The notes beneath the pieces were generated by a model, which saw only the letters and a list, made by a program, of their open reading frames with translations, did not search any database and was not told the origin of the DNA. The position numbers and the translations under genes are program-made. Positions 8,619-54,258 of a stretch of DNA of 64,000 bases are shown one piece after another; position 1 is the stretch's first letter; each line of letters opens with the position of its first letter. Source of the stretch: Pseudomonadota bacterium (GTDB lineage Bacteria > Pseudomonadota > Alphaproteobacteria > Caulobacterales > Caulobacteraceae); contig CAUJHW010000119.1 in assembly GCA_963205005.1 (NCBI GenBank), forward strand, positions 14,438-78,437. Reading direction: 5' to 3'.

Positions 8619-8940
8619 GGGCCGACGCAAACGAAGGCGGCCCCGGCGGCCATCGAAGGCGCCAGGGCCGCACACCCGTCGCTTGCCGTCCGTATGGGGG
8701 GACGCGGAGGCCAGCGCGATCAGGACTTATCTAGGTGCGGATCTGCGGCCGACAAGGTCCGGGCAGCTGAAAAACGCAGGCCTTCGGGGCATCCGCCCCG
8801 GCTCGCGTCCGGCCGGACATCTAAGCCTTCCTTCATGACCGGCCTGACAAAAGACCGCCCTCATTCGGACCGCCTTCTGCGATCCTGTGCGACGGGGTAA
8901 GTCGCCGGGCGCGATCGGGCCGGGGGCGGTATCGGGGGAC

Positions 8941-11679
8941 ATGCGCATTTTCAGGACCGGAACCTTCGTCGGCGCGCCGGGTGCGTGGCGATTCGGCGCG
9001 GCGGGCCTCATCCCGCTGGCCCTGCTCGCCGCGCCCGCCGCCCAGGCCCAGACCCCCAGGGCGGCCAGGGCGGACGAGGACGTCACCGTGTCCGAACTCG
9101 TGGTGACGGCGGCCGCCGCGCAGACCGGCGCCGTGGTGGGCGATGTCGTCCCTGAGCTCCAGCTCTCCCCGGCCGACATCCAGGCCTATGGGGTCAGCAC
9201 CATGGCCGAGCTGCTGGAACAGCTGGCCCCCCAGACCCGCACCGAACGCGGCCGGGGCGGGGCGCCTGTGATCCTGCTGAACGGCCGGCGGATCTCAGGC
9301 TTCAACGAGATCCGCGACCTGCCCTCAGAGGCCATCCTGCGGGTGGACATCCTGCCGGAGGAGGCCGCGCTCAAGTACGGCTTCACCGCCTCACAGAGGG
9401 TCGTGAACTTTGTCCTGCGGCCGCAGTTCCGGGCCACCACCGCCGAGCTGGCCGGCTCCGCGCCCACGGCGGGCGGGCGTCAGGGCGGGCAGGCCGAGGT
9501 GGGGCTCTTCCGGATCCGCGACGACCGGCGGCTGAACCTTACCCTGAAGGTTCAGGGCGCCACGGCCCTGACCGAGGACGAGCGCGGGCTGTCAGGCCTG
9601 GTATCCGGCCGGACCTTCGATCCGGTCGGCAACATCCGCGGGACGGCCGCTGACGGGCAGATCGATCCCGCCCTCAGCGCGCTGGCGGGCGGGACGGTGA
9701 GCCTGGCCGGCGTCCCGGCCTCGGCGGCCACCCGCGCGCCCACCCTGGCCGACTTCGCCGCCACCGCCGGCCGGCTGAACACCAGCGACGTCGGCCGCTT
9801 CCGCTCGCTGCTGCCCGCGACCCGGCAGGTCACCGCCAACGCCGTCTACAGCCAGCCGATCCTCGGCGGGGTGGTGGCTAGTCTCAACGCCACGTTCGAT
9901 GCGACCCAAAGCGAGTCCCGCCTGGGCCTGCCCGGCGTCACCCTGCTGATTCCGGCCGGTAATCCGTTCTCGCCTTTCGCCACGACGGTGGCGCTGGATC
10001 GCTACGCCACCGCCCTGGGCCCGCTGACCCAGGATCGCGACAGCTGGAACGCCAGGCTCGGCGGCGGCCTGAACAAGGACCTGTCCGGCTGGCGGCTGTC
10101 GCTCACCGGCGCATTCGAGCACGAAGACAGCCGCACCCGCAGCGACGCCGGGCTCAACGCGACGGCGCTTCAGGCGCTGCTGAACGCCCGCTCGCCGACC
10201 TTCAACCCGTTCGCTGATCTGCCCGCCGACCAGCTCGCGTTCCGCGAGAACGAGACCCGGTCGAAGTCCGACAACGCCAACCTGCAGGGCGTGGCCAGCG
10301 GCCGGCTGCTCCGTGCCCCGGCGGGCGACCTGCGCACCAGCATCCGGCTTGGCGCCACCCACCTGGGCTTCGAATCGACCTCGGAGCGCCTCGGCGTCGT
10401 GCAGTCGGTCGATCTCTCGCGGGACACCCTGAACGGCCAGGTCAGCCTGGATCTGCCCCTCGCCAGCCGGCGGGCGGACTTCCTGCCGGCCCTGGGCGAG
10501 CTGTCCGTGAACCTCAACGTCGCGCTTGAGGACCTGTCGGACTTCGGCACGCTGGAGACCCTGGGCTACGGCCTCAACTGGCGGCCGGTCACCCGTTTCA
10601 GCCTGATCGTCTCGACCAGCCACGACCAGAACGCGCCCACGATCCAGCAGCTGGGCAATCCGGTGGTGTTCACCGCCGGCGCGCGGATCTTCGACTTCGC
10701 AACCGGCCGCACGGTCGATGTGACACGCCTGAGCGGCGGCAATTCCGGCCTGCTGGCCGAGACCAGCGACGTCTTCAAGGTGGGCCTGAACTTCAGCCCG
10801 CTGACCGCGCGCGACCTGGTGTTCAGCGCCAACTACGTCGACACCCGCACCCGCAATCCGATCGTCACCTTTCCGGCCGCCACCGCCGACATCGAGGCGG
10901 CCTTCCCCTCGCGGTTCCTGCGCGACGCGTCCGGTGTCCTGACCCAGGTCGACTACCGGCCGGTCAACTTCGCCCGGCTCGACCGGCGCAACCTGCGCTG
11001 GGGGTTCAACTATTCCCAGCCTATCGGGCCCCAGCCGCCGCAGCGCGGCCGGCCAGGGGGCGGTGGCGGGCCGCCGGGGCGCGCAGGCCCCGGGATGGGC
11101 GGCGGGATGACGGGCGGACCTCCATCATTCGCGGCGGGCGGACCTCCGCCCAGCGCGTTCCAGGGCGGCGGCGGACCGGGCGGCCCCGGCGGGCGGCTGC
11201 AGGCCAGCGTCTATCACACGGTCTATTTCGAGGACCGGTTCCTCGTCCGGCGCGGCGGCCCGGTGCTCGACCGGCTGGACGGCGCGGCGGCGGACGGGGC
11301 CGGCGGCGGACAGCCCCGCCATGAGATCGAGGCCGAGATCGGCGGCGCGCTGCGCGGCATCGGCGCGCGGCTGACCGTGGACTGGGTCAGCGGCACCACG
11401 GTGCGGGGCGGACCCGGCTCGGCGGTGGGCGACCTCAGCTTTTCTGACCTGACCAAGGTGTCGTTCCGGGCCTTCGCCGACCTCGACCAGCAGAAGCCCC
11501 TGCTGGCCCGGGCGCCGTGGCTGCGCGGAACCCGGGTGTCCTTCGTCCTCGCCAACCTGCTGGACGCGCGGGTCCGAGTGCGCGACGCCGCGGGGGCGAC
11601 GCCGACGGGCTACCAGCCCGCCAACCTCGACCCCGTCGGCCGCTCAGTCCGCATCAGCGTCCGCAAGCTGTTCCTGTAG
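8941..11679 (+). CDS. TonB-dependent receptor-like outer membrane protein with a Gly/Pro-rich insertion
   Basis: Signal peptide, VSELVVTA TonB-box-like segment, plug motif ILRVDILPEEAALKYG, amphipathic beta-strands, C-terminal GRSVRISVRKLFL. Confidence 0.8.
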   Translation: MRIFRTGTFVGAPGAWRFGAAGLIPLALLAAPAAQAQTPRAARADEDVTVSELVVTAAAAQTGAVVGDVVPELQLSPADIQAYGVSTMAELLEQLAPQTRTERGRGGAPVILLNGRRISGFNEIRDLPSEAILRVDILPEEAALKYGFTASQRVVNFVLRPQFRATTAELAGSAPTAGGRQGGQAEVGLFRIRDDRRLNLTLKVQGATALTEDERGLSGLVSGRTFDPVGNIRGTAADGQIDPALSALAGGTVSLAGVPASAATRAPTLADFAATAGRLNTSDVGRFRSLLPATRQVTANAVYSQPILGGVVASLNATFDATQSESRLGLPGVTLLIPAGNPFSPFATTVALDRYATALGPLTQDRDSWNARLGGGLNKDLSGWRLSLTGAFEHEDSRTRSDAGLNATALQALLNARSPTFNPFADLPADQLAFRENETRSKSDNANLQGVASGRLLRAPAGDLRTSIRLGATHLGFESTSERLGVVQSVDLSRDTLNGQVSLDLPLASRRADFLPALGELSVNLNVALEDLSDFGTLETLGYGLNWRPVTRFSLIVSTSHDQNAPTIQQLGNPVVFTAGARIFDFATGRTVDVTRLSGGNSGLLAETSDVFKVGLNFSPLTARDLVFSANYVDTRTRNPIVTFPAATADIEAAFPSRFLRDASGVLTQVDYRPVNFARLDRRNLRWGFNYSQPIGPQPPQRGRPGGGGGPPGRAGPGMGGGMTGGPPSFAAGGPPPSAFQGGGGPGGPGGRLQASVYHTVYFEDRFLVRRGGPVLDRLDGAAADGAGGGQPRHEIEAEIGGALRGIGARLTVDWVSGTTVRGGPGSAVGDLSFSDLTKVSFRAFADLDQQKPLLARAPWLRGTRVSFVLANLLDARVRVRDAAGATPTGYQPANLDPVGRSVRISVRKLFL

Positions 11680-16451: not shown

Positions 16452-17018
16452 ATGCGACCCAGGGGGAATGCCTTGGCGCCGGCAGGGTCGTCTGAACAGT
16501 CTGAGGAGCACGGCCCGCTCCTCGAGGCGTTCCTCGAGAAGCGCGAGAGCCTGCTTCTGTTCCTGGCCTCGCGGACCCGCTGCATGGCCACGGCCGAGGA
16601 CCTGATCCAGGACCTGTACCTGAAGGTCGCCGCCCTCGACGCCGGGTCCGAGGTCCGCGCGCCGGTGGCGCTGCTCTACCGCATGGCCGCCAACCTGATG
16701 GTCGATCACGTCCGCAGCGCCCAGCGCTCGTCCCGGCGCAACGGACAGTGGCGGATGGAGACCCACACCGCAATCGGCGGCGAGGACGTGGCCTCAGACA
16801 TGCCTGCGGACGAAGCTGTGCTGGCCCGCGAGCGGGTCCGCCTCCTGGCCGACGCCGTCGCCGCCCTGCCCCCGAAAATGGGTCAGGCCTTCCGGCTGCA
16901 CAAGCTGGAGGGGCTGTCCCAGGCCGACACCGCGCGAGCCATGGGGGTGTCCGTCAAGATGATCGAACAGCACATCCAGGCCGCCATCGCCAACCTGTCG
17001 CAGAGGCTGCGGTCATGA
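16452..17018 (+). CDS. ECF sigma-70 factor, FecI-like
   Basis: AEDLIQDLYLK region 2; region 4 FRLHKLEGLSQADTARAMGVSVKMIEQHI; directly upstream of a FecR gene; exact start uncertain. Confidence 0.9.
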   Translation: MRPRGNALAPAGSSEQSEEHGPLLEAFLEKRESLLLFLASRTRCMATAEDLIQDLYLKVAALDAGSEVRAPVALLYRMAANLMVDHVRSAQRSSRRNGQWRMETHTAIGGEDVASDMPADEAVLARERVRLLADAVAALPPKMGQAFRLHKLEGLSQADTARAMGVSVKMIEQHIQAAIANLSQRLRS

Positions 17019-17041
17019 CGCGCGAGGAATTTTGCACCGGA

Positions 17042-17070
17042 CCTAGGGGTGAGGCCGAGCGGCGCCGTCT
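17042..17070 (+). promoter_or_regulatory. putative ECF promoter CCTAGGG-N17-CGTCT (copy 1, upstream of fecR)
   Basis: Same motif and spacing recur at 20512-20540. Confidence 0.55.
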
Positions 17071-17115
17071 CTTCGGCTGTTCGGCGCGGTCTGCGCAGAT
17101 CGGGCAGGCTGGCAC

Positions 17116-18093
17116 ATGACGCACATTGTGAGCGACAGGGAGGGGACGGTGGCGGACGCCAGCGCCTGGCTCGCGCGCCTGCAGCGTGACGACGTCAGCG
17201 AGGCCGACGCCCAGGCCTTCGGGGAATGGCTGGCGCTGTCCGCCGCCAACCGCGAGGCCTACCGCCACGCCCTGTCCATCTGGCACGAGTATGAGGCCGC
17301 CGCCGACGCGGTGCTGACCGAACTGGCCGAGGACGCCCAGCGGGCCTCTGCCCGCCGCGGCCCCACCCGTCGCTGGCTGGCCGGCGCCGGCGGCGCCGCC
17401 ATCGCGGCGGGCCTGGCGGTCGCGTTCGTGGCCCCGATGCTGGGCCAGCCCGCCATGCAGACCTACGCCACCGGAAAGGGCCAGCATCAGCGGATCAAGC
17501 TTGCCGACGGCTCGGTCGTCGACCTGGACGCCGAGACCCGGCTCAGCGTGAGCTTCAGCGGATCGGCGCGCAGGGTCACCCTCGGCGACGGCCAGGCGAT
17601 CTTCGACGTGGCCCACGACGAGGGCCGCCCCTTCACCGTCGAGGCGTCGAATCGCATCGTCCGCGTGGTGGGCACCCAGTTCGACGTCCGCAACCGCCGC
17701 GGGATGCTGAGCGTCACGGTGGCGCGCGGCAAGGTCCAGGTGCGGCCGTTCGCCGCCGATCCGGCGGGCCAGGCACGCCTGCTCACCGCGGGCGACCGCC
17801 TGGAGGTCGATCGCGCCGGCGTCGAGAAGCTCAGCGCCGTGGATCCGCAGGAAGCCTTCGGCTGGCGCTCCGGCCGCCTCGTCTACCGGGGCGAGCCGCT
17901 GGCCAATGTGGTGGCCGACCTGAACCACCAGTATGTGCAGCAGATCGGGGTCTCCGACCCCGAACTGGGCCGGACGCCGATCACCGGGGTGATCGTGCTG
18001 GACGATCAGGCCGCGGTACTGGCGCGCCTGAGCTTGATGCTGCCGGTAAGATCGATACCTTCCGAGCGGGGGACGCTGCTTCTCCGGAAGTAG
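17116..18093 (+). CDS. FecR family anti-sigma/transmembrane sensor
   Basis: ASAWLARL...FGEWL N-domain, TM segment, LADGSVVDLDAET, VVGTQFDV, WRSGRL. Confidence 0.93.
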   Translation: MTHIVSDREGTVADASAWLARLQRDDVSEADAQAFGEWLALSAANREAYRHALSIWHEYEAAADAVLTELAEDAQRASARRGPTRRWLAGAGGAAIAAGLAVAFVAPMLGQPAMQTYATGKGQHQRIKLADGSVVDLDAETRLSVSFSGSARRVTLGDGQAIFDVAHDEGRPFTVEASNRIVRVVGTQFDVRNRRGMLSVTVARGKVQVRPFAADPAGQARLLTAGDRLEVDRAGVEKLSAVDPQEAFGWRSGRLVYRGEPLANVVADLNHQYVQQIGVSDPELGRTPITGVIVLDDQAAVLARLSLMLPVRSIPSERGTLLLRK

Positions 18094-18139
18094 GCCGCAG
18101 GTTGGGTCGGAGCTGGTTATCCTTGGTCGTCGGCAACTG

Positions 18140-20500
18140 TTGGCCGCTGTCGCCGGTTTGGCGGCGGCGTGCGGAATCGGCCAGGCCGCCGAGGCTGCGC
18201 CCGCGCGCATCCGTTTCAGCATCGAGCCCCAGGCCTATTCCGAGGCGCTGCTCGACCTCGCCCAGCAGGCCAATGTCACGCTGATCGGCGCGGCGTCCTG
18301 CGCCGGCAGTTCCACGATCCGCGTCTCGGGGACCATGACCCTCGAGCAGGCCCTTACCCAGACCCTGTCCGGCGCCCGCTGCACGTGGCGGCTGATCGCC
18401 CCCGGGGCGGTGGAGATCTCGCCCAGCCCCCGGGTCGAGCCGCCCCGCCCCGAGCCGCCGGTAACGGTCGACGACGTGCTGGTCACCGCCACGAAGCGTA
18501 TCCGTAACGCCCGCGAGCTGGCCGTCGCGATCACCACCATCCCCCGCGAAGGCCTGGAGGCCACCGGCGCCTCGGATGCGGGCGAGGCGGCCAGCCAGTT
18601 CGCCGGCGTCCTGGTGACGAACCTCGGTCCGGGCCGCAACAAGCTGCTGCTGCGCGGGCTGTCCGACGGCGCCCACACCGGGCGGACGCGATCCACGGTC
18701 GCGACCTACCTCGACGACCTGCCGGTCAACTACAACGCCCCCGATCCGGACCTGCGGCTGGTGGACGTGGAACGGATCGAGGTTGCGCGCGGGCCACAGG
18801 GCGCCCTGTTCGGCGCGGGATCGCTCAGCGGCGTCTACCGCATCGTCACACGCAAGCCCGACCTCGGCGATTTCTCCAGCGAGATCCGCGCCACCGCCGC
18901 GGCCACCCGCGGCGGTGCGCCCAGCGGCGCGGTGGAGGGCCACGTCAACATCCCGCTGTCCGCGCTGGGCCTCGGCATCCGCCTCTCCGCCTATGAGGAG
19001 ATCCAGGGGGGCTATCTCGATGACCTGATCCGACAGAAGAGCAACGTCGACCAGACCGAGCGGCGCGGCGGCCGGCTGATGATCGCCTTCAAGCCGAACG
19101 ACGCCTGGTCGGTCACCCTGACCGCCGCAGGCCAGCACCTGCGCTCGCGCGACACCCACTACACCGCCCCCGGCCTCGGCCTGAACCGGGCCGTCCGGAT
19201 CCGTGAGCCGCACGTCAACGACATCGAACTGCTGACCGCGACCATCCGCCGGTCCTGGGGATGGGGCGACCTGGTCTCCTCGACCGGCGCCGTCCAGCAC
19301 CGCTACAGCAGCGTCTACGACTCCACAGCCACCAAGCGGCTCTACACGGTCACCGGCGACACCTCGGCCTACTTCGAGCGCACCGAGACCCGGATGGCCG
19401 TGCAGGACATCGTGCTCACCTCGCGCGGCGCGGGCCGGCTGGAATGGCTGGTCGGTCTCTACGGATCCTACACGGCCGTGAAGTCGCCGACCGAGTTCTC
19501 CGTCCAGGTGCCGCGCGCGCCGCTGATCCCGGTCTACGCCGACGACCGGCGGGACCGGGTCCGCGAACTCGCCGCCTATGGCGAGGCCTCCTACCGGCTC
19601 GCGCCCGACGTCACCCTCGCTGCCGGGGCGCGCGCCTTCAGCATCCACACCCGCACGAAGTCCGATGTGGTCTCGGAAAACTTCCCGCCGCGCGCCATCG
19701 CCCGCACGGTGGATTTCCAGAGCGTATCGCCCAAGCTGTCCCTGCAGTGGACGTTCCGCCCCGGGGATCTGGTCTACGCCGTGGTTTCGGAAGGCTACCG
19801 GTCGGGCGGCATCAATTCCGGCGGCGCGGTGCCGCTGGCGGCGCAGCGGGCGACCTTCCGGCCCGACCGGCTGGTCAACTTCGAGGCCGGCCTCAAGCTG
19901 GAGGACCCGCCCCGCGGGCTCTCCCTGAACTCGGCGGTGTTCTACGACATCTGGAAAGACATCCAGACCGACCAGTTCCGGCCCTCGGGCATCCCCTACA
20001 CCATCAACGCCGGCAACGCCCGTGTGCTGGGGATCGAGACAGAGGTCGCGCTGCGGGCCGGCGGCCTGACCGCCCAGGTCAATGGCCGCGTCGCCTCGGT
20101 GCGGACCTCCAAGGGAAATGCCGACTTCACGGCGCGCCTGGTTGATGGCCTTCCCGGCGCGCCGGCGCTCTCAGGCGGGGCCCTGCTCAGCTACGAACGG
20201 CCGATCGGCGGCGACTGGACCGTGCGGGTCGTGGGCCAGGCCACCTATGTTGGCCCTTCGCGCGTGACCTTCGACGCCAGCCAGCCGAGGACCGGCGGGT
20301 TCATCCGCACCAAGCTCGCCGCCGAGGTCTATGGCACGGCGGCCGGCCTGCCCGTAGGCCTGCAGGTCTTCGTCCTCAACCCGCTGGATTCGTTCAGCGA
20401 CACCTTCGCCTTCGGCAACCCCTTCAACCCTGACCAGGCGCGCCAGATCACCCCCCAGCGGCCGGTCACGGTCGGCGTGACCCTGTCCGCCGCAATTTAA
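18140..20500 (+). CDS. TonB-dependent receptor with N-terminal signalling (STN-like) domain
   Basis: FSIEPQAYSEALLDLAQQAN signalling domain, VLVTATKR TonB box, VERIEVARGPQGALFGAGSLSG plug motif. Confidence 0.9.
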   Translation: MAAVAGLAAACGIGQAAEAAPARIRFSIEPQAYSEALLDLAQQANVTLIGAASCAGSSTIRVSGTMTLEQALTQTLSGARCTWRLIAPGAVEISPSPRVEPPRPEPPVTVDDVLVTATKRIRNARELAVAITTIPREGLEATGASDAGEAASQFAGVLVTNLGPGRNKLLLRGLSDGAHTGRTRSTVATYLDDLPVNYNAPDPDLRLVDVERIEVARGPQGALFGAGSLSGVYRIVTRKPDLGDFSSEIRATAAATRGGAPSGAVEGHVNIPLSALGLGIRLSAYEEIQGGYLDDLIRQKSNVDQTERRGGRLMIAFKPNDAWSVTLTAAGQHLRSRDTHYTAPGLGLNRAVRIREPHVNDIELLTATIRRSWGWGDLVSSTGAVQHRYSSVYDSTATKRLYTVTGDTSAYFERTETRMAVQDIVLTSRGAGRLEWLVGLYGSYTAVKSPTEFSVQVPRAPLIPVYADDRRDRVRELAAYGEASYRLAPDVTLAAGARAFSIHTRTKSDVVSENFPPRAIARTVDFQSVSPKLSLQWTFRPGDLVYAVVSEGYRSGGINSGGAVPLAAQRATFRPDRLVNFEAGLKLEDPPRGLSLNSAVFYDIWKDIQTDQFRPSGIPYTINAGNARVLGIETEVALRAGGLTAQVNGRVASVRTSKGNADFTARLVDGLPGAPALSGGALLSYERPIGGDWTVRVVGQATYVGPSRVTFDASQPRTGGFIRTKLAAEVYGTAAGLPVGLQVFVLNPLDSFSDTFAFGNPFNPDQARQITPQRPVTVGVTLSAAI

Positions 20501-21809: not shown

Positions 21810-21913
21810 GGGGAGTCTCCTGGCTGGCGCGGTGGACGCGGGGTTCGGCCCCTACCTACCGTCTCGCCGTCCGAAGCGCATCCCCGCCGGAGCGGACCCG
21901 TCCACAAACAGAA

Positions 21914-21942
21914 CGGCCCGCGTCGGGTCTCGACGCGGGCCG
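21914..21942 (-). terminator. Rho-independent terminator of the PEP-CTERM gene
   Basis: 12-bp perfect stem CGGCCCGCGTCG/CGACGCGGGCCG, followed by TTCTGTTTGT on the minus strand. Confidence 0.75.
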
Positions 21943-21994
21943 CAATGTTGTCTGGCGCCATCCGCGGAGGGACGGCGAGGCCGGTGTCGCCGGA

Positions 21995-22792
21995 TCAGGC
22001 GGCGGCGAGCCGCCGGCGGCGCATCGCCGTACCCACGGCGCCGAAGCCAAGGATCATCAGCGCCCAGGTGCCGGGTTCCGGCACCGCGTTGTCGATCGGC
22101 CAGCCGATGGCGAACGTCTGGTGCTGCGGGTTCCGGGCCTGATCGGTGATCGTGTAGACCCGGTCGTTGGCGTCGGCCAGCGAGCTGTAGTTCCCCAGGC
22201 GGTAGTCGTTGAAGTACTGCTGGTACTGCCCGTACTGCGTCGCGTTCAGATTGTTGTTGCGGACCGTCACCGTACGGGTCGGGTTGGCAACCGCCCAGAT
22301 CGCCGCCTGGATCGCGGCGGTGCGCATGGCGGTGTCGAAGTCATTCGGCTGGGCCATGTGCAGCAGATAGCCGGTGTCGACCAGGTTGGTCAGGCTGGTG
22401 ATCTGCGCGTTGCTCAGCTCGTTGGCCGGCGCGGTCGGGCCGTAGTTGGTGAACAGCGCCTGACCCGGATCGCCGTACGTCGAGGTGTAGGTGTAGTTCA
22501 GGGTCGTGTTGATATACATCGCATGGAATATATCGATGCAGAACCCGAAGATGTTGTAGTCGGAGTTGTTGAACTGCGCGCCGGTGCCGAAGTCGTTCAC
22601 GCGGAAGGTCACGCCGTTCGAGTAGACCGCGCCCACGCCCGAGATGTTCGCCTGGAACGTCGTGTTCATGGTGGCGTATTCGACGTAGATCGTCTGCGAG
22701 GCCGAGGCCGGCGACGCGAGGGCCATGGCCGAAGCCACGGCGGCGCCCGCCAGAATTTTCACCCCGGACATTTTCAGTTCAAACTTGGCCAC
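21995..22792 (-). CDS. PEP-CTERM (PEPxxWA) surface protein with a thioester-domain-like passenger
   Basis: GTG 22792 after AAAAGGGGA; signal peptide; FCID, IQAAIW and HQTFA motifs; C-terminal VPEPGTWALMILGFGAVGTAMRRRR. Confidence 0.88.
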   Translation of the reverse strand: MAKFELKMSGVKILAGAAVASAMALASPASASQTIYVEYATMNTTFQANISGVGAVYSNGVTFRVNDFGTGAQFNNSDYNIFGFCIDIFHAMYINTTLNYTYTSTYGDPGQALFTNYGPTAPANELSNAQITSLTNLVDTGYLLHMAQPNDFDTAMRTAAIQAAIWAVANPTRTVTVRNNNLNATQYGQYQQYFNDYRLGNYSSLADANDRVYTITDQARNPQHQTFAIGWPIDNAVPEPGTWALMILGFGAVGTAMRRRRLAAA

Positions 22793-23054
22793 GCCAATCC
22801 CCTTTTCCCCTGCGACGGTGCAGCGCACGCGTCGTTGGCCTACTCTATTCGTTAACGCCGTTCGAAGCGCAATTCGTTTCGCGTGAGAGGCGAATCCCCC
22901 CCGGAAGCGCTCGCCCCGAGCGCTAAATCGACGGAATTCCCGACTCTCGGTGGGGAAACCCATCCCATAGTGGGCCTGGCGGAGGGCGGCGCGCGGTCCG
23001 CCCGGCTTGACGCCCGTCCTCCTCCCTCCATCCTACGCCCCCTGGAGGCGTCGC

Positions 23055-23885
23055 TTGGCGGACAACGACTCGAACCGGGTGGATTGGACGGACGCTGAGC
23101 TCGATCTCATCGTGGCCGATTACTTCGCCATGCTGGCGCAGGAACAGGCCGGGCAGCCCTACATAAAGGCCCGCCATCGCGCGCGGCTGATCGAACAGAC
23201 CGGGCGGTCTGCCGGGTCCATAGAGTTCAAGCACATGAACATCTCCGCCGTTCTGGATGAGATCGGCGAGCCCATCATTCGCGGCTACCGGCCGATGGCC
23301 AACTATCAACACGCGATCCTCGACGCGATCGAGCGCCGCCTAACAGCTCAGCCAGTGCTCTGGGTCCCGCGCCCTTCGGACCAGCTGGCGGAGGTCGTGA
23401 CGCCCTATCTTGGACCCGCGCCAATTCTACAGCCCCGCCGCGAGCGGCCCCGCATCCTTGAGCGGCTAGTCCGAAAGTTCGACGCCAGCGAGCGCGACTT
23501 CCGCAACCGCGAACTCGGCAAGGCCGGTGAAGAGATGGTGTTCAACTTCGAGTGTCAGCGCCTCATGTCCGAAGAGCGCCCGGACCTGGCGCGAAAGGTC
23601 CGCTGGGTTGCACAGGAAGACGGTGACGGCGCGGGCTACGACATTCTCTCCTTTGACAGCTCCGGTGCGGAACGACTGGTCGAGGTCAAGACCACCCGGG
23701 GATCCCAGACGACGCCCTTCTTCCTGACCCGGAACGAATACGCCCTGGCCGAGGAGCGCGCCGACGCCTTCAAGCTCATGCGCCTCTATTCATTCGCTCA
23801 GGACCCGAGGATGTTCGAACTCACCCCACCCCTGGGTGAGACAGTGCGCCTGTCGACGCACACCTATGAGGCGCGGTTCTCGTGA
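23055..23885 (+). CDS. DUF3883 (PD-(D/E)XK) domain putative nuclease
   Basis: C-terminal DGDGAGYDILSF...VEVKTT...FFLTRNE; GGAGG RBS before TTG 23055; more A/T-ending codons than its neighbours. Confidence 0.8.
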   Translation: MADNDSNRVDWTDAELDLIVADYFAMLAQEQAGQPYIKARHRARLIEQTGRSAGSIEFKHMNISAVLDEIGEPIIRGYRPMANYQHAILDAIERRLTAQPVLWVPRPSDQLAEVVTPYLGPAPILQPRRERPRILERLVRKFDASERDFRNRELGKAGEEMVFNFECQRLMSEERPDLARKVRWVAQEDGDGAGYDILSFDSSGAERLVEVKTTRGSQTTPFFLTRNEYALAEERADAFKLMRLYSFAQDPRMFELTPPLGETVRLSTHTYEARFS

Positions 23886-24032: not shown

Positions 24033-24632
24033 ATGTACGCGGTGATCAAGACCGGCGGCAAGCAGTACCGGGTCAGCCCCGGAGACCTGCTGGTGGTCGA
24101 AAAGCTCGATGGTGAACCCGGCGCGGCCGTGGCCTTCGGTGATGTCCTCATGCTGGGCGATGGCGAGGCCGTGACGGTCGGCGCGCCCACGGTGGACGGC
24201 GCCTCGGTGGCCGCGACCCTGGTCGAGACCCGCAAGGGCGAGAAGGTGAAGATCTTCAAGAAGATCCGCCGCCAGGGCTATCGCCGCACCAACGGCCACC
24301 GCCAGCACGAGACCGTGCTCCGGGTCACCGGCATCACCGCCGACGGCAAGGAGACCAAGTGGGAAGGGACCGTGGACCTGACAACCAAGGCCGAGCTCGA
24401 CGCCCGCGCCCGTGGCCTGGACTTCGCGACCCTGAACCTGCCCCGGCAGACCAAGGCCCAGAAGGCCGCCGCCGCGGCCGCCGCTGCGCCGGCCCCGAAG
24501 GCCGCCAAGGCCAAGGCCGAGAAGGTGGTCGACGCCGCCCCGGCCGCCGAAGCCGCCGCTGAAGCGCCCGCGCCGAAGAAGGCCGCTGCGCCCAAGAAGG
24601 CCGCCGCCAAGAAGGACACGTCGGCCGAGTAA
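24033..24632 (+). CDS. rplU: 50S ribosomal protein L21 with Ala/Lys/Pro-rich C-terminal extension
   Basis: MYAVIKTGGKQY...RRTNGHRQ. Confidence 0.97.
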   Translation: MYAVIKTGGKQYRVSPGDLLVVEKLDGEPGAAVAFGDVLMLGDGEAVTVGAPTVDGASVAATLVETRKGEKVKIFKKIRRQGYRRTNGHRQHETVLRVTGITADGKETKWEGTVDLTTKAELDARARGLDFATLNLPRQTKAQKAAAAAAAAPAPKAAKAKAEKVVDAAPAAEAAAEAPAPKKAAAPKKAAAKKDTSAE

Positions 24633-43760: not shown

Positions 43761-44885
43761 TTACTCGGCCGCCAAGGCCGCGGAAGGCCCGAGAAGCGGC
43801 TCCAGCAGCTCCCGCGCAAGCCAGCGGACCACCGGAACCGCGACGCCGTCTCCCGCCACATGCAGGGCGCCCGTCGCCGTCGCCGGCAGGCGGTAGCTGT
43901 CTGGCAGGCCCATCAGCCGCGCGGCCTCGCGCGGGGTGACCAGACGGCTGCGGACGGCGCCGGCCTCGACCACCACGATCGCCTGGCGGGAGGATCCGCC
44001 GCGCGGGGTTCGCAGGCAGCCGGCCACGCCGTCGAAGCGCACCTCGGCCCGCTGGACCGAGCGGCCCTCTTCCTTGCGTGTCCGCCGGAACACCGCGCCC
44101 ACCGCCCGGCCCGGGCGCGAGGCCAGCCGCGCGCGGTGCAGCGGTCCCATCAGTTCGAGCAGCCGGGCGGTCTGCGCCGGGCCATGCCAGCGGACGTCCG
44201 CGTCGGGCTCCAGCAGCGCAGCAAGGTCGGTGTTACGGGCCGGCGGCGCGGCCAGCCGCCACCACACCCATTGCGGGGCCAGCTCTTCGGGCAGGGCAGC
44301 CCGGGCGGCGCGGACCGCGCGGGTATGGAAGGGGCTGTCGCCGGTCAGGCCCGCGGGGATCTCGCGGGCCGCGATCACGAACACCCGGGGCCGCGACTGC
44401 GGCAGCACGGTCGCCGCGTCGATTTCCAGCGCCCCGAAGCGATAGCCCCGCGACGCCAGGGCCGCGCCCAGGGCCGCGAAGTCGGCGCCGCCGTGCGAGG
44501 TCAGCAGGCCGGAGACATTCTCGATGACGATCAGGCGCGGGGCGCGGCCGCCGTCGTCCAGCGCCTCCATCAGTCGCCAGAATCCGAAGAACGCCGAGGA
44601 GCGCCCGCCCGCCAGCCCGGCCCGCGCGCCGGCCAGGCTGAAGTCCTGGCAGGGGCTGGAAGCCCAGGCGAGATCGGCCCGGCCCGGCAGGTCGTCGGCC
44701 GACAGGTTCCAGACATCCCCCTGGCGGAAGTGGGCCTCCGCATCGGCGAAGTTGGCCCTGTAGGCCTCCGACTTCACCCGGTCGAAGTCGTTGGCGAAGG
44801 CGCAGGTCCAGGCCTCGCCCAGCCCGATGCGCGCCATGCCGCCGCCGGCAAAGAATTCGTAGAAGGTGCGGCCGGGGCGACTCAT
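43761..44885 (-). CDS. C5-cytosine DNA methyltransferase (orphan)
   Basis: Motif I FFAGGG, motif IV SPCQDFS, motif VI ENV, motif VIII QSRPR. Confidence 0.92.
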   Translation of the reverse strand: MSRPGRTFYEFFAGGGMARIGLGEAWTCAFANDFDRVKSEAYRANFADAEAHFRQGDVWNLSADDLPGRADLAWASSPCQDFSLAGARAGLAGGRSSAFFGFWRLMEALDDGGRAPRLIVIENVSGLLTSHGGADFAALGAALASRGYRFGALEIDAATVLPQSRPRVFVIAAREIPAGLTGDSPFHTRAVRAARAALPEELAPQWVWWRLAAPPARNTDLAALLEPDADVRWHGPAQTARLLELMGPLHRARLASRPGRAVGAVFRRTRKEEGRSVQRAEVRFDGVAGCLRTPRGGSSRQAIVVVEAGAVRSRLVTPREAARLMGLPDSYRLPATATGALHVAGDGVAVPVVRWLARELLEPLLGPSAALAAE

Positions 44886-52590: not shown

Positions 52591-53373
52591 TTAGGCGGCA
52601 ACCACCCGGCGACGACGCAGCGCCGCGCCGGCGAGGCCGAAGCCGCCGATCATCAGCGCCCAGGTCGCCGGCTCCGGCACCGCGCCGCCGACGTTCACCG
52701 CGCCGGTCGCGGCGAGGTTCAGTTCGTTGACGCGCAGCTGGAACGGATCGCTGCCGCTGTGGAAGTTGGTCGTGGTCTGGCCGCCGACAAACAGGCCTTC
52801 CGTGACCGCGCCAAAGACGCAGCCGGCAGAGCCGGAGATGTAGCAGACGTCCACGCCGCTCACGACGTCGTGCGAGAAGTAGCCGCCGCCGAAGCTGGTC
52901 CCGGCGCCATTGAGGTCGAGACCGGCGGCGACGCCATCTGTCGTCAGGTCGGCGCTGCTCGAAGCCAGATTGTAGCTGCTGTCCCCGGCAATGCTGGTGC
53001 CGAAGCCCGTGAGGGTCGTGCCGAAGTCCGTATTGCGGGCGATGTTCAGCAGAACGCGGCCGCCGGACGACACGAAGGTCTCAAGGTTCGAGAGGTTCGC
53101 GCCAAGGAAGGTGTTGATCTCGCCCGTCGTCTGGTCGCTGCCATCGAGGTAGATGAAGGCGTAGCCCGCCGTGAAGACCGAGTTATCGAAGCCGTGGAAG
53201 CCGTTCCAGGCGCCGGACCCGAACGCCGCGTTCATGGCGTCCTCATTGGTGGACTGGTCCCACGGCAGAGTGCTCCCGGTCATGTAGGCATAGTCCACGG
53301 CGCCGGCGGAGCCGGCCATGCCCAGAGCGACGACGGCGGTCGCCGCGGCAACCATCAGGTTGAGTTTTTTCAT
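52591..53373 (-). CDS. PEP-CTERM (PEPxxWA) surface protein
   Basis: Signal peptide; VPEPATWALMIGGFGLAGAALRRRR. Confidence 0.92.
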   Translation of the reverse strand: MKKLNLMVAAATAVVALGMAGSAGAVDYAYMTGSTLPWDQSTNEDAMNAAFGSGAWNGFHGFDNSVFTAGYAFIYLDGSDQTTGEINTFLGANLSNLETFVSSGGRVLLNIARNTDFGTTLTGFGTSIAGDSSYNLASSSADLTTDGVAAGLDLNGAGTSFGGGYFSHDVVSGVDVCYISGSAGCVFGAVTEGLFVGGQTTTNFHSGSDPFQLRVNELNLAATGAVNVGGAVPEPATWALMIGGFGLAGAALRRRRVVAA

Positions 53374-53613: not shown

Positions 53614-54258
53614 TCAGGCGGTGATCGTCCGGCGGCGACGGAGCGTCGCGCCGGCAAGGCCGAAGCCGCCGATCATCAGCGCCCAGGTCGCAGGCTCGGG
53701 CACCGCGCCGCCCACGCCGGGGTCAAACGTGACGTTGTCGACGATCTCGATCAGGCCAGTGCTGACATTGCCACCACCCGTGAACGGCGATCCCTGAGCG
53801 TTCGTGTAGGCGAAGGTGAAATTGTCGAACGCCGATCCCGTGTAGCTAATCGTCTGGTTCATGATGTCGTCGCGGTTGAGAACGACCGAGACCGAGGCGA
53901 TCTGCACGTTGCCGAGGAACAGGTTCAGCAACGCCAGGTCGCCCAGATTGGTGAAGCCTTGGTCATCGTTGCCGAAATCGAGCGAGAGACTCGTGTGGGT
54001 CCCGTCGTTGAACTGGCCCGTCAGATAGTCGCCGTCGGAGTCGCCGCCGATGAGCAGCGACTGACCGTCGCCCTGCTCGCCGAAATCGCCAACAACGACG
54101 CCGCCATTGTTGCCCAGGAAGCTGCCGAAGGTCAGTTCCGGATGCCCGTTTGCCTGCAGGCCGTTCAGGCCGGTCTCGAAGTCGATGACGGCGGCCTGGG
54201 CGCTGGCCCCGCCCAGGACGATCGCCGCCACCGTGGCGGCAAGAAGTGAACGCTTCAT
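53614..54258 (-). CDS. PEP-CTERM (PEPxxWA) surface protein
   Basis: Signal peptide; AVIDFE start of mature protein; VPEPATWALMIGGFGLAGATLRRRR. Confidence 0.92.
   Translation of the reverse strand: MKRSLLAATVAAIVLGGASAQAAVIDFETGLNGLQANGHPELTFGSFLGNNGGVVVGDFGEQGDGQSLLIGGDSDGDYLTGQFNDGTHTSLSLDFGNDDQGFTNLGDLALLNLFLGNVQIASVSVVLNRDDIMNQTISYTGSAFDNFTFAYTNAQGSPFTGGGNVSTGLIEIVDNVTFDPGVGGAVPEPATWALMIGGFGLAGATLRRRRTITA

Follow-up and report, generated by a model that had tools for sequence, protein, structure and literature searches.

A thioester domain-like family of PEP-CTERM proteins suggests covalent attachment chemistry in environmental Gram-negative bacteria

In a 64,000-nucleotide stretch of DNA from a Caulobacteraceae bacterium (assembly GCA_963205005.1, contig CAUJHW010000119.1, positions 14,438 to 78,437 of the forward strand; hereafter the window), we analysed a gene on the minus strand at 21995-22792 whose product is very probably a homologue, by fold, of the thioester domains (TEDs) of Gram-positive surface adhesins, and which carries the N-terminal and C-terminal signals of a PEPxxWA-CTERM protein. 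It belongs to a sizeable, unannotated family in environmental Alphaproteobacteria that pairs TED-type features with the exosortase/PEP-CTERM pathway. Sequence conservation and structural models together suggest that this family points to covalent attachment chemistry in environmental Gram-negative bacteria.

Results

Structural models of the passenger domain match thioester domains

We built an AlphaFold2 model of the window protein on a 45-sequence alignment, which gave a mean predicted local distance difference test score (pLDDT) of 84.3 and a predicted template modelling score (pTM) of 0.79, with pLDDT below 50 at residues 1-11 in the signal peptide. Residue numbers are counted throughout from the ATG at 22771, which yields a protein of 258 amino acids (aa). 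The passenger domain (residues 25-228; 22088-22699, minus strand) was modelled as beta strands within residues 26-97, three helices (121-140, 145-162 and 177-192) and two further strands (204-210 and 219-224). A Foldseek search of this model against 350,542 chains of the PDB returned 11 matches at E<=1e-3, every one a TED (5a0g, 4c0z, 5a0l) with probability 1.00, and the next match followed at E=0.16. The best match was the Clostridium perfringens CpTIE-TED (5a0g; E 4.5e-5, target-normalised TM-score 0.60), and the others were the N-terminal TED of the S. pyogenes pilus adhesin Cpa (4c0z) and SfbI-TED (5a0l), with target-normalised TM-scores of 0.51-0.60 across all matches at this threshold. 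The search was replicated with a second model (pLDDT 80.7), that of P0256, which shares about 25-30% identity with the window protein and was modelled on a separate alignment of distant relatives; the sole match of this second model at E<=1e-3 was again 5a0g (E 9e-4, probability 1.00). The claim of a TED-type passenger, first made in a reading of the sequence only, thus gains support from two independent models that match nothing but TEDs. Because class-II TEDs were not matched by Foldseek and the passenger has no room for their insertion, it is, as modelled, a class-I-like, minimal TED.

Sequence profiles gave a fainter picture. The sequence-only reading had proposed a comparison with TED or TQXA models as a check. 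Weak matches recurred among the relatives, 25 of 45 of which matched PF08341 at E<=1 (best E 8.6e-5), making this the only recurring Pfam family outside the tail. In the window protein itself, PF08341 was the only Pfam match of the passenger, a weak one of 13.2 bits (E 0.13, residues 93-186) below the cutoff of 22, and TIGR03934 (TQXA_dom) gave no match. We found no curated NCBIfam or Pfam model covering the passenger domain, and none of the more than 1000 relatives carried a precomputed PF08341 assignment or an informative name, their database names being only 'PEPxxWA-CTERM sorting domain-containing protein' or 'hypothetical'. Matches of the protein to botulinum toxin and other PDB sequences by phmmer were discarded as noise (E about 1).

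Three motifs resembling those of thioester domains are near-invariant across the family

The sequence-only reading had placed three motifs, FCID (22532-22543), IQAAIW (22295-22312) and HQTFA (22109-22123), in that order in the passenger, and translation of the minus strand recovered all three at these positions. The Cys motif, F77-C78-I79-D80, reaches H83 (22523-22543), and C78 ends strand 72-78 in the model. The helix motif, I154-Q155-A-A-I-W159, lies in the second helix (145-162) and is the counterpart of the TQxx-Phi-W motif of TEDs (Phi, hydrophobic), whereas the Gln motif, H217-Q218-T-F-A221, is the counterpart of Phi-Q-zeta-Phi-Phi (zeta, polar) and has Q218 just before strand 219-224.

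About 77 full-length relatives were recovered in a search of 5.8 billion proteins, and the closest named ones came from Phenylobacterium (Caulobacteraceae), which agrees with the proposed origin of the DNA in a Caulobacteraceae cell. The 45-relative alignment extends to identities as low as 29%; among its invariant passenger positions are C78, D80, H83, Q155, A157, W159, Q218 and F220. A passenger profile searched against 1.84 billion cluster representatives matched 131 clusters at E<=1e-10 and 400 at the looser threshold of E<=1e-3, almost all of them made up of proteins of 210-290 aa. Counted at 50% identity, the family has 400 clusters, and clustering at 90% leaves more than 1000 proteins. 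One match of a different kind was P0211, a large Cys-rich repeat protein of 1185 aa that weakly matches the N-terminal portion of the profile seven times and has none of the three motifs; this match is most likely spurious or a product of low complexity.

We then tabulated conservation in a hidden Markov model (HMM) alignment of 216 family representatives, with the sequences aligned at each column as the denominator. The Cys was present in 208/208, the Asp at C+2 (D80) in 207/208 and the His at C+5 (H83) in 198/208; in the helix, the Gln (Q155) was kept in 211/213, the Ala and the Ile each in 210/212 and the Trp (W159) in 212/212; and the C-terminal Gln (Q218) was found in 144/145. In a full-length alignment this Gln was present in 264/264 members, a count that includes five misaligned cases checked by eye (SQHLF, TQKLF, AQGLF, AQNLY and SQAF), and the His at C+5 in 242/264, being replaced otherwise by Asp (10), Arg (8) or Thr (3). 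Among the 42 most distant members (mean identity 22%), the only invariant passenger columns were the Cys, the Asp, the helix A-I-W and the C-terminal Gln. The motif Cys is the sole Cys of the mature domain in 193/206 members, and the spacing from Cys to Gln has a median of 135 residues in the family and is 140 in the window protein. The prediction that homologues would conserve the Cys/Gln pair was therefore confirmed. Near-invariance of the motifs across upwards of 200 homologues, including sequences with no more than 22-30% identity, indicates that they are not a product of chance.

Coevolution supports adjacency of the Cys and Gln strands

As an indirect guide to whether C78 and Q218 are neighbours, we used mean-field direct-coupling analysis on the family, with column shuffles, which do not preserve phylogeny, as the control. 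A first run on 196 sequences gave a signal not clearly above the shuffled controls. In a second run, on 264 sequences with an effective number of 210, the strongest couplings lay above those of the shuffles at all ranks. The top couplings include V131-A221 (rank 1), F56-F220 (rank 2), F77-T151 (rank 7), F77-F220 (rank 17) and I79-T151, where T151 lies one helical turn ahead of Q155. Between segments 70-79 and 215-226, the signal gathers on the antidiagonals i+j = 296 and 297, which correspond to antiparallel registers with C78 facing Q218 or T219, and their summed positive score of 6.06 compares with a maximum of 4.06 in 24 column shuffles that ignore phylogeny. This covariation gives indirect support to a predicted arrangement in which the Cys strand and the Gln strand are adjacent and antiparallel and the Cys strand contacts the IQAAIW helix. 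The crystal structures of Walden et al. show the same arrangement of Cys strand, Gln strand and helix (PMC4450167).

The protein carries a Sec signal peptide and a PEPxxWA-CTERM tail

The protein is ordered as a Sec-type signal peptide, a passenger of about 200 residues, ten linker residues and a sorting tail AVPEPGTWALMILGFGAVGTAMRRRRLAAA. The signal peptide (22700-22792, minus strand), read from the sequence, has a positive n-region, a hydrophobic core and a cleavage site at ALASPASA|SQ, and the homologues have signal peptides that align with it. The PEPxxWA-CTERM sorting signal (21998-22084, minus strand) consists of VPEPGTWA, a hydrophobic helix and an RRRR cluster; a transmembrane-like helix spans residues 233-257 in the AlphaFold model. 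The tail AVPEPGTWALMILGFGAVGTAMRRRR passes PF07589 (E 8e-8, 32.5 bits against a cutoff of 20.7) and scores 51.7 bits on the PEPxxWA-CTERM model NF035944 (cutoff 35) and 24.2 bits on TIGR02595 (cutoff 16). The placement of the motifs between a signal peptide and a PEPxxWA tail, as originally described, therefore stands, and the tail is presumed from its sequence to be the site of exosortase recognition and cleavage.

Two more PEPxxWA-CTERM proteins are encoded in tandem beside gyrB, at 52591-53373 (260 aa) and 53614-54258 (214 aa), both on the minus strand. Each scores 52 bits on NF035944; their passengers are not TED-like and fall into no curated family. The presence of these two proteins in the window suggests that an exosortase system exists in the genome, which evidently holds many substrates of the PEPxxWA sorting system.

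The gene is transcribed alone in wastewater communities

The TED-like protein is encoded by a single open reading frame (21995-22792, minus strand; stop codon 21995-21997). The probable start is the GTG at 22792, giving 265 aa, with the ATG at 22771 as an alternative of 258 aa; the mature protein is identical from either. A Shine-Dalgarno-like AAGGGG, read from the sequence, lies at 22799-22804 (minus strand), 6 nt 5' of the GTG, and no Shine-Dalgarno-like element was seen upstream of the ATG. Many homologues have a short conserved peptide ahead of the signal peptide (MFNSE, VFKSE, MFRSE, LFEKA), whose counterpart in the window is AKFELK (22772-22792, minus strand); this stretch could belong to the protein as a true N-terminal extension, or it could be a conserved 5' leader that gene callers have included in the coding sequence. 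The GC content at third codon positions (GC3) of the gene is 0.86, which is usual for genes in this window of 70% GC.

The database protein P0001 is 100% identical to the window protein, and the exact gene sequence is present in wastewater, activated-sludge and biofilm metagenomes. Metatranscriptome contigs from four RNA runs of sludge or wastewater delimit a transcribed unit at 21978-22818 (minus strand) that contains the TED-like gene only, and in the four assemblies the flanking ACT, NOV_C and TonB-receptor genes had zero RNA contig depth, a measure that reflects transcript abundance poorly. Because RNA contig coverage is selective for the TED-like gene, these data argue for transcription in situ that is real, monocistronic and fairly strong. 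About 50 nt past the stop codon lies a strong, intrinsic terminator-like hairpin (21913-21943, minus strand) with a 13-bp stem containing 11 GC pairs, followed by TCTGTTTGTG.

The gene stands alone in its genomic neighbourhood

The TED-like gene is flanked by genes unrelated to it and to each other: a cassette of extracytoplasmic function (ECF) sigma factor, FecR and TonB-dependent receptor genes, a gene for a protein with two ACT domains and one for a NOV_C-domain protein, then rplU-rpmA, a GNAT acetyltransferase gene and obg. The rest of the window is chromosomal housekeeping, including proB, asd, gyrB, recF, polA and recQ, and no exopolysaccharide genes were found in the 64 kb. Orthologues in Phenylobacterium that are about 80% identical have different neighbours, and distant family members are also solitary, for example between rsmB and guaA. 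We accordingly obtained no clue to function from operon structure or synteny, as the neighbours differ among both the close orthologues and the distant members. A solitary placement fits a bond that forms by itself without a partner enzyme.

Several genomes carry two or three TED-like paralogues (L001/L032, L008/L030 and L017/L018/L021), and the Phenylobacterium metagenome-assembled genome SMAG_U4872 has tandem copies (L019, 4958-6792). The cultured Phenylobacterium kunshanense BUT-10 has an orthologue that is 81% identical over the passenger, together with a paralogue with all motifs.

Further features of the window were recorded. The upstream cassette (16452-20500, plus strand), comprising an ECF sigma factor, a FecR-like anti-sigma factor and a TonB-dependent receptor, is of the surface-signalling iron-uptake type, and we saw no evidence that it regulates the TED-like gene. 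Divergent from that gene is the NOV_C gene (23007-23885, plus strand), whose product matches PF13020 in its C-terminal part (E 1e-21) and for which no transcripts were seen in the four metatranscriptomes. In the 3' region of rplU (24484-24594, plus strand), which encodes an Ala/Lys-rich C-terminal extension of L21, one metatranscriptome contig (run X35) skips 109 nt, probably reflecting a length variant from a related strain and not RNA processing. The window also encodes a C-5 cytosine DNA methylase (43761-44885, minus strand) and a 930-aa open reading frame (8887-11679, plus strand) with a strong coding signal (GC3 0.92) and no Pfam or NCBIfam match at the thresholds used.

Discussion

Our analysis of the window protein and its family leads to a model in which the protein is probably a new, stalk-less, exosortase-sorted variant of the TED covalent-binding domain. 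From the conserved residues and the models, we infer a course of events that covers thioester formation, its reactivity, exosortase processing and the ligand. The Sec signal peptide would carry the protein across the inner membrane, where the passenger would fold as a class-I-like TED. The side chains of Cys78 and Gln218 would then condense spontaneously with loss of NH3 into a buried internal thioester, packed against the IQAAIW helix. The PEPxxWA-CTERM tail would deliver the protein to an exosortase, and cutting at the PEP motif would leave the processed protein in the exopolysaccharide layer, or else at the outer membrane or outside it. There, a nucleophile of the ligand, most likely a primary amine (a Lys side chain, an amino sugar or a polyamine), may attack the thioester, leaving the ligand amide-linked to Gln218 and freeing the Cys thiol. 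The role of the protein would be the covalent tethering of cell-surface or matrix components, in cell-matrix or cell-cell cohesion. We judge it moderately likely, from the sequence and the models, that the Cys78-Gln218 thioester does form and acts by covalent capture. Two features favour tethering to matrix or to neighbouring cells over host adhesion, namely the absence of a stalk from the protein and the habitat of the organism in activated-sludge flocs and biofilms; a host is the least likely target.

The near-invariant His at C+5 may, as a matter of speculation, widen the targets to polysaccharide, in analogy to the His of C3 and C4B. A nearby His in C3 and C4B reportedly turns the thioester into an acyl-imidazole able to acylate hydroxyls, which Dodds et al. 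are said to have described in 1996. In 10/264 family members this His is Asp, the same swap as in C4A versus C4B. On this analogy, stalk-less PEP-CTERM TEDs might, after exosortase processing, link Gram-negative cells covalently to the exopolysaccharide or matrix proteins of flocs and biofilms, with the His at C+5 acting like His1106 of C3/C4B and the bond passing to sugar hydroxyls as well as amines; we regard this extended scheme as quite unlikely.

Several observations weigh against a thioester-based mechanism. The Foldseek TM-scores are moderate (0.44-0.60, with root-mean-square deviations of 6-9 A), and the window protein falls short of the PF08341 cutoff. TED chains were not recovered among PDB sequences either by phmmer with the protein or by hmmsearch with two family profiles. 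Across the family, Ile, Val or Leu stands where the TQ motif has Thr, and the residue before the candidate thioester Gln is polar (His/Thr) and not hydrophobic. The shuffles used as the coupling control leave phylogeny out of account. No exosortase was found among the roughly 30 genes scanned in the 64-kb window, and a reactive thioester would have to withstand passage across the periplasm.

Some of these points would be expected if the passenger had a TED-derived fold without a thioester, its Cys, Gln and Trp being structural or ligand-binding residues of a non-covalent binder of matrix or polysaccharide, or its lone Cys forming an intermolecular disulfide that multimerises the protein at the surface. 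The sub-threshold PF08341 match, the departures from the motif consensus (IQ for TQ and HQ for Phi-Q) and the moderate TM-scores all fit this explanation, as does the fact that exopolysaccharide retention by the PEP-CTERM protein PepA is possibly non-covalent (PMC9850573). However, an invariant unpaired Cys in an extracytoplasmic domain of an aerobe is hard to explain structurally, the residues that remain invariant at 22% identity are the candidate thioester pair and the helix packing on it, and the Cys and Gln strands covary in register; for the disulfide version, moreover, a surface disulfide has no need of the Gln. We therefore consider a fold without a thioester possible but unlikely.

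The cluster of Cys78, Asp80 and His83, all near-invariant within six residues, could alternatively be the catalytic centre of a cysteine hydrolase, a transglutaminase-like enzyme or an amidase acting on the matrix or the cell wall. The His at C+5 is outside the TED consensus: the single His of SfbI-TED (H93) is at another position, and the pH behaviour of SfbI-TED does not depend on it (bioRxiv 10.64898/2026.02.05.703941), so TEDs in general do not share a His at C+5. Against such an enzyme, neither model had a fold match to a Cys protease, NlpC/P60, transglutaminase or Ntn hydrolase (best E=0.15, probability 0.04), about 8% of members have Asp, Arg or Thr at the position of the His, and a catalytic role would account for neither the invariant C-terminal Gln nor the QxxIW helix. 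A Cys, Asp and His within six residues is also not known from the triads of characterised Cys hydrolases. A catalytic centre is thus very unlikely. Chance or convergence in an unrelated beta/alpha domain is favoured by the shortness of the motifs, just 4-6 residues each, and by HMM-to-sequence searches, which gave no link to solved TEDs. We consider this explanation very unlikely, since the order, spacing and secondary-structure context of the motifs are all TED-like, the motifs are invariant over hundreds of sequences, and the independently built models and the recurring PF08341 matches both single out TEDs.

A covalent-capture role for the family would have several consequences. Most PEP-CTERM substrates are without known function, and one class of them would gain a mechanism if the thioester is real. 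If it forms, covalent adhesion would extend to diderm bacteria, cell-matrix cohesion in activated-sludge flocs and biofilms would have a testable mechanism, and a compact, stalk-free domain of about 200 aa would become a possible protein-ligation tool. If the link to the matrix is also true, diderm bacteria would have their first described covalent-adhesion chemistry. Experimental work is made straightforward by the cultured carrier, P. kunshanense BUT-10. TEDs have been found 'exclusively in Gram-positive bacteria' (Walden et al., PMC4450167), and a 2026 preprint likewise frames them as Gram-positive. Our literature search, which subscription-only papers lay outside, found nothing on thioester domains with PEP-CTERM or exosortase features or in Gram-negative or proteobacterial hosts.

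Comparison with known systems

Walden et al. (2015) defined the TED motifs as [YFL]C-Phi-zeta, TQxx-Phi-W and Phi-Q-zeta-Phi-Phi, with three core helices between beta regions; they called the last motif 'weak' and found the TQxx-Phi-W helix motif in most TEDs and not in all (PMC4450167). Measured against the 'weak' last motif, the polar residue ahead of Q218 is a minor departure. The Cys-Gln pairs of solved TEDs, C109-Q261, C94-Q247 and C138-Q267, have spacings of 129-153 (PMC4450167). We compared the window protein with the class-I TEDs of PF08341, namely CpTIE-TED (5A0G), SfbI-TED (5A0L), Cpa (4C0Z/2XI9) and PnTIE. Like these, it has counterparts of the three motifs in the same order, that of the helix motif without the Thr, a spacing of 140 that falls within their range and a beta/three-helix/beta architecture, and it appears to be a secreted surface protein with fully conserved Cys and Gln and no accessory enzyme genes. 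The pattern reported by Walden et al., in which Cys and Gln are the only fully conserved residues of TEDs, is mirrored by the invariant columns of our most distant members. By contrast, its host is a Gram-negative alphaproteobacterium from an environmental habitat (sludge, biofilm) and not a pathogenic one, and its anchor is PEPxxWA-CTERM/exosortase in place of LPXTG/sortase. It also lacks an isopeptide or ester stalk and repeats, with the sorting signal following within 10 residues of the domain. Two residues are particular to its family: the Asp at C+2, which is invariant, and the His at C+5, which is nearly so.

The class-II TEDs (6FWV, 6FX6, 6FWY and the pLS20 conjugation adhesin; Miller et al. 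2018, Gago-Cordoba et al. 2021) have the Cys-Gln thioester chemistry and the surface adhesin role that are proposed for the window protein, and the pLS20 adhesin illustrates that the targets of TEDs need not be host molecules. They contain a seven-stranded beta-sandwich insertion (PMC9210967) that is absent from the window protein, and none of the class-II entries was among the Foldseek matches. Alpha-2-macroglobulins (A2Ms) and complement C3-C4, including the periplasmic A2Ms of Gram-negative bacteria, also use an internal Cys-Gln thioester for covalent capture, and the periplasmic members indicate that such bonds are possible in the Gram-negative envelope. They differ in their alpha-alpha toroid fold, their CGEQ motif with Cys and Gln three residues apart, their huge multidomain organisation and their proteolytic activation.

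A parallel in habitat and layout is the flocculation protein PepA (NF033554) of Zoogloea and Aquincola, which, like the window protein, has a signal peptide, a small passenger and a PEP-CTERM tail and comes from activated sludge. On NF033554 (cutoff 80 bits), the window protein scored 11.8 bits and the best distant member 51 bits over its full length. We rejected kinship with PepA: the matches to floc_PepA (up to 51 bits, E 1e-13) and to THxN PEP-CTERM proteins, which extended over long stretches of full-length distant members, all vanished once the PEP tail was removed, which identifies them as tail-driven, and a search from the most PepA-like member, P0242, gave no PepA-named protein. PepA retains exopolysaccharide on cells by a mechanism that is unknown and possibly non-covalent (PMC9850573). 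By analogy, exopolysaccharide retention of the PepA type could be the kind of job for which a covalent cross-linker is suited.

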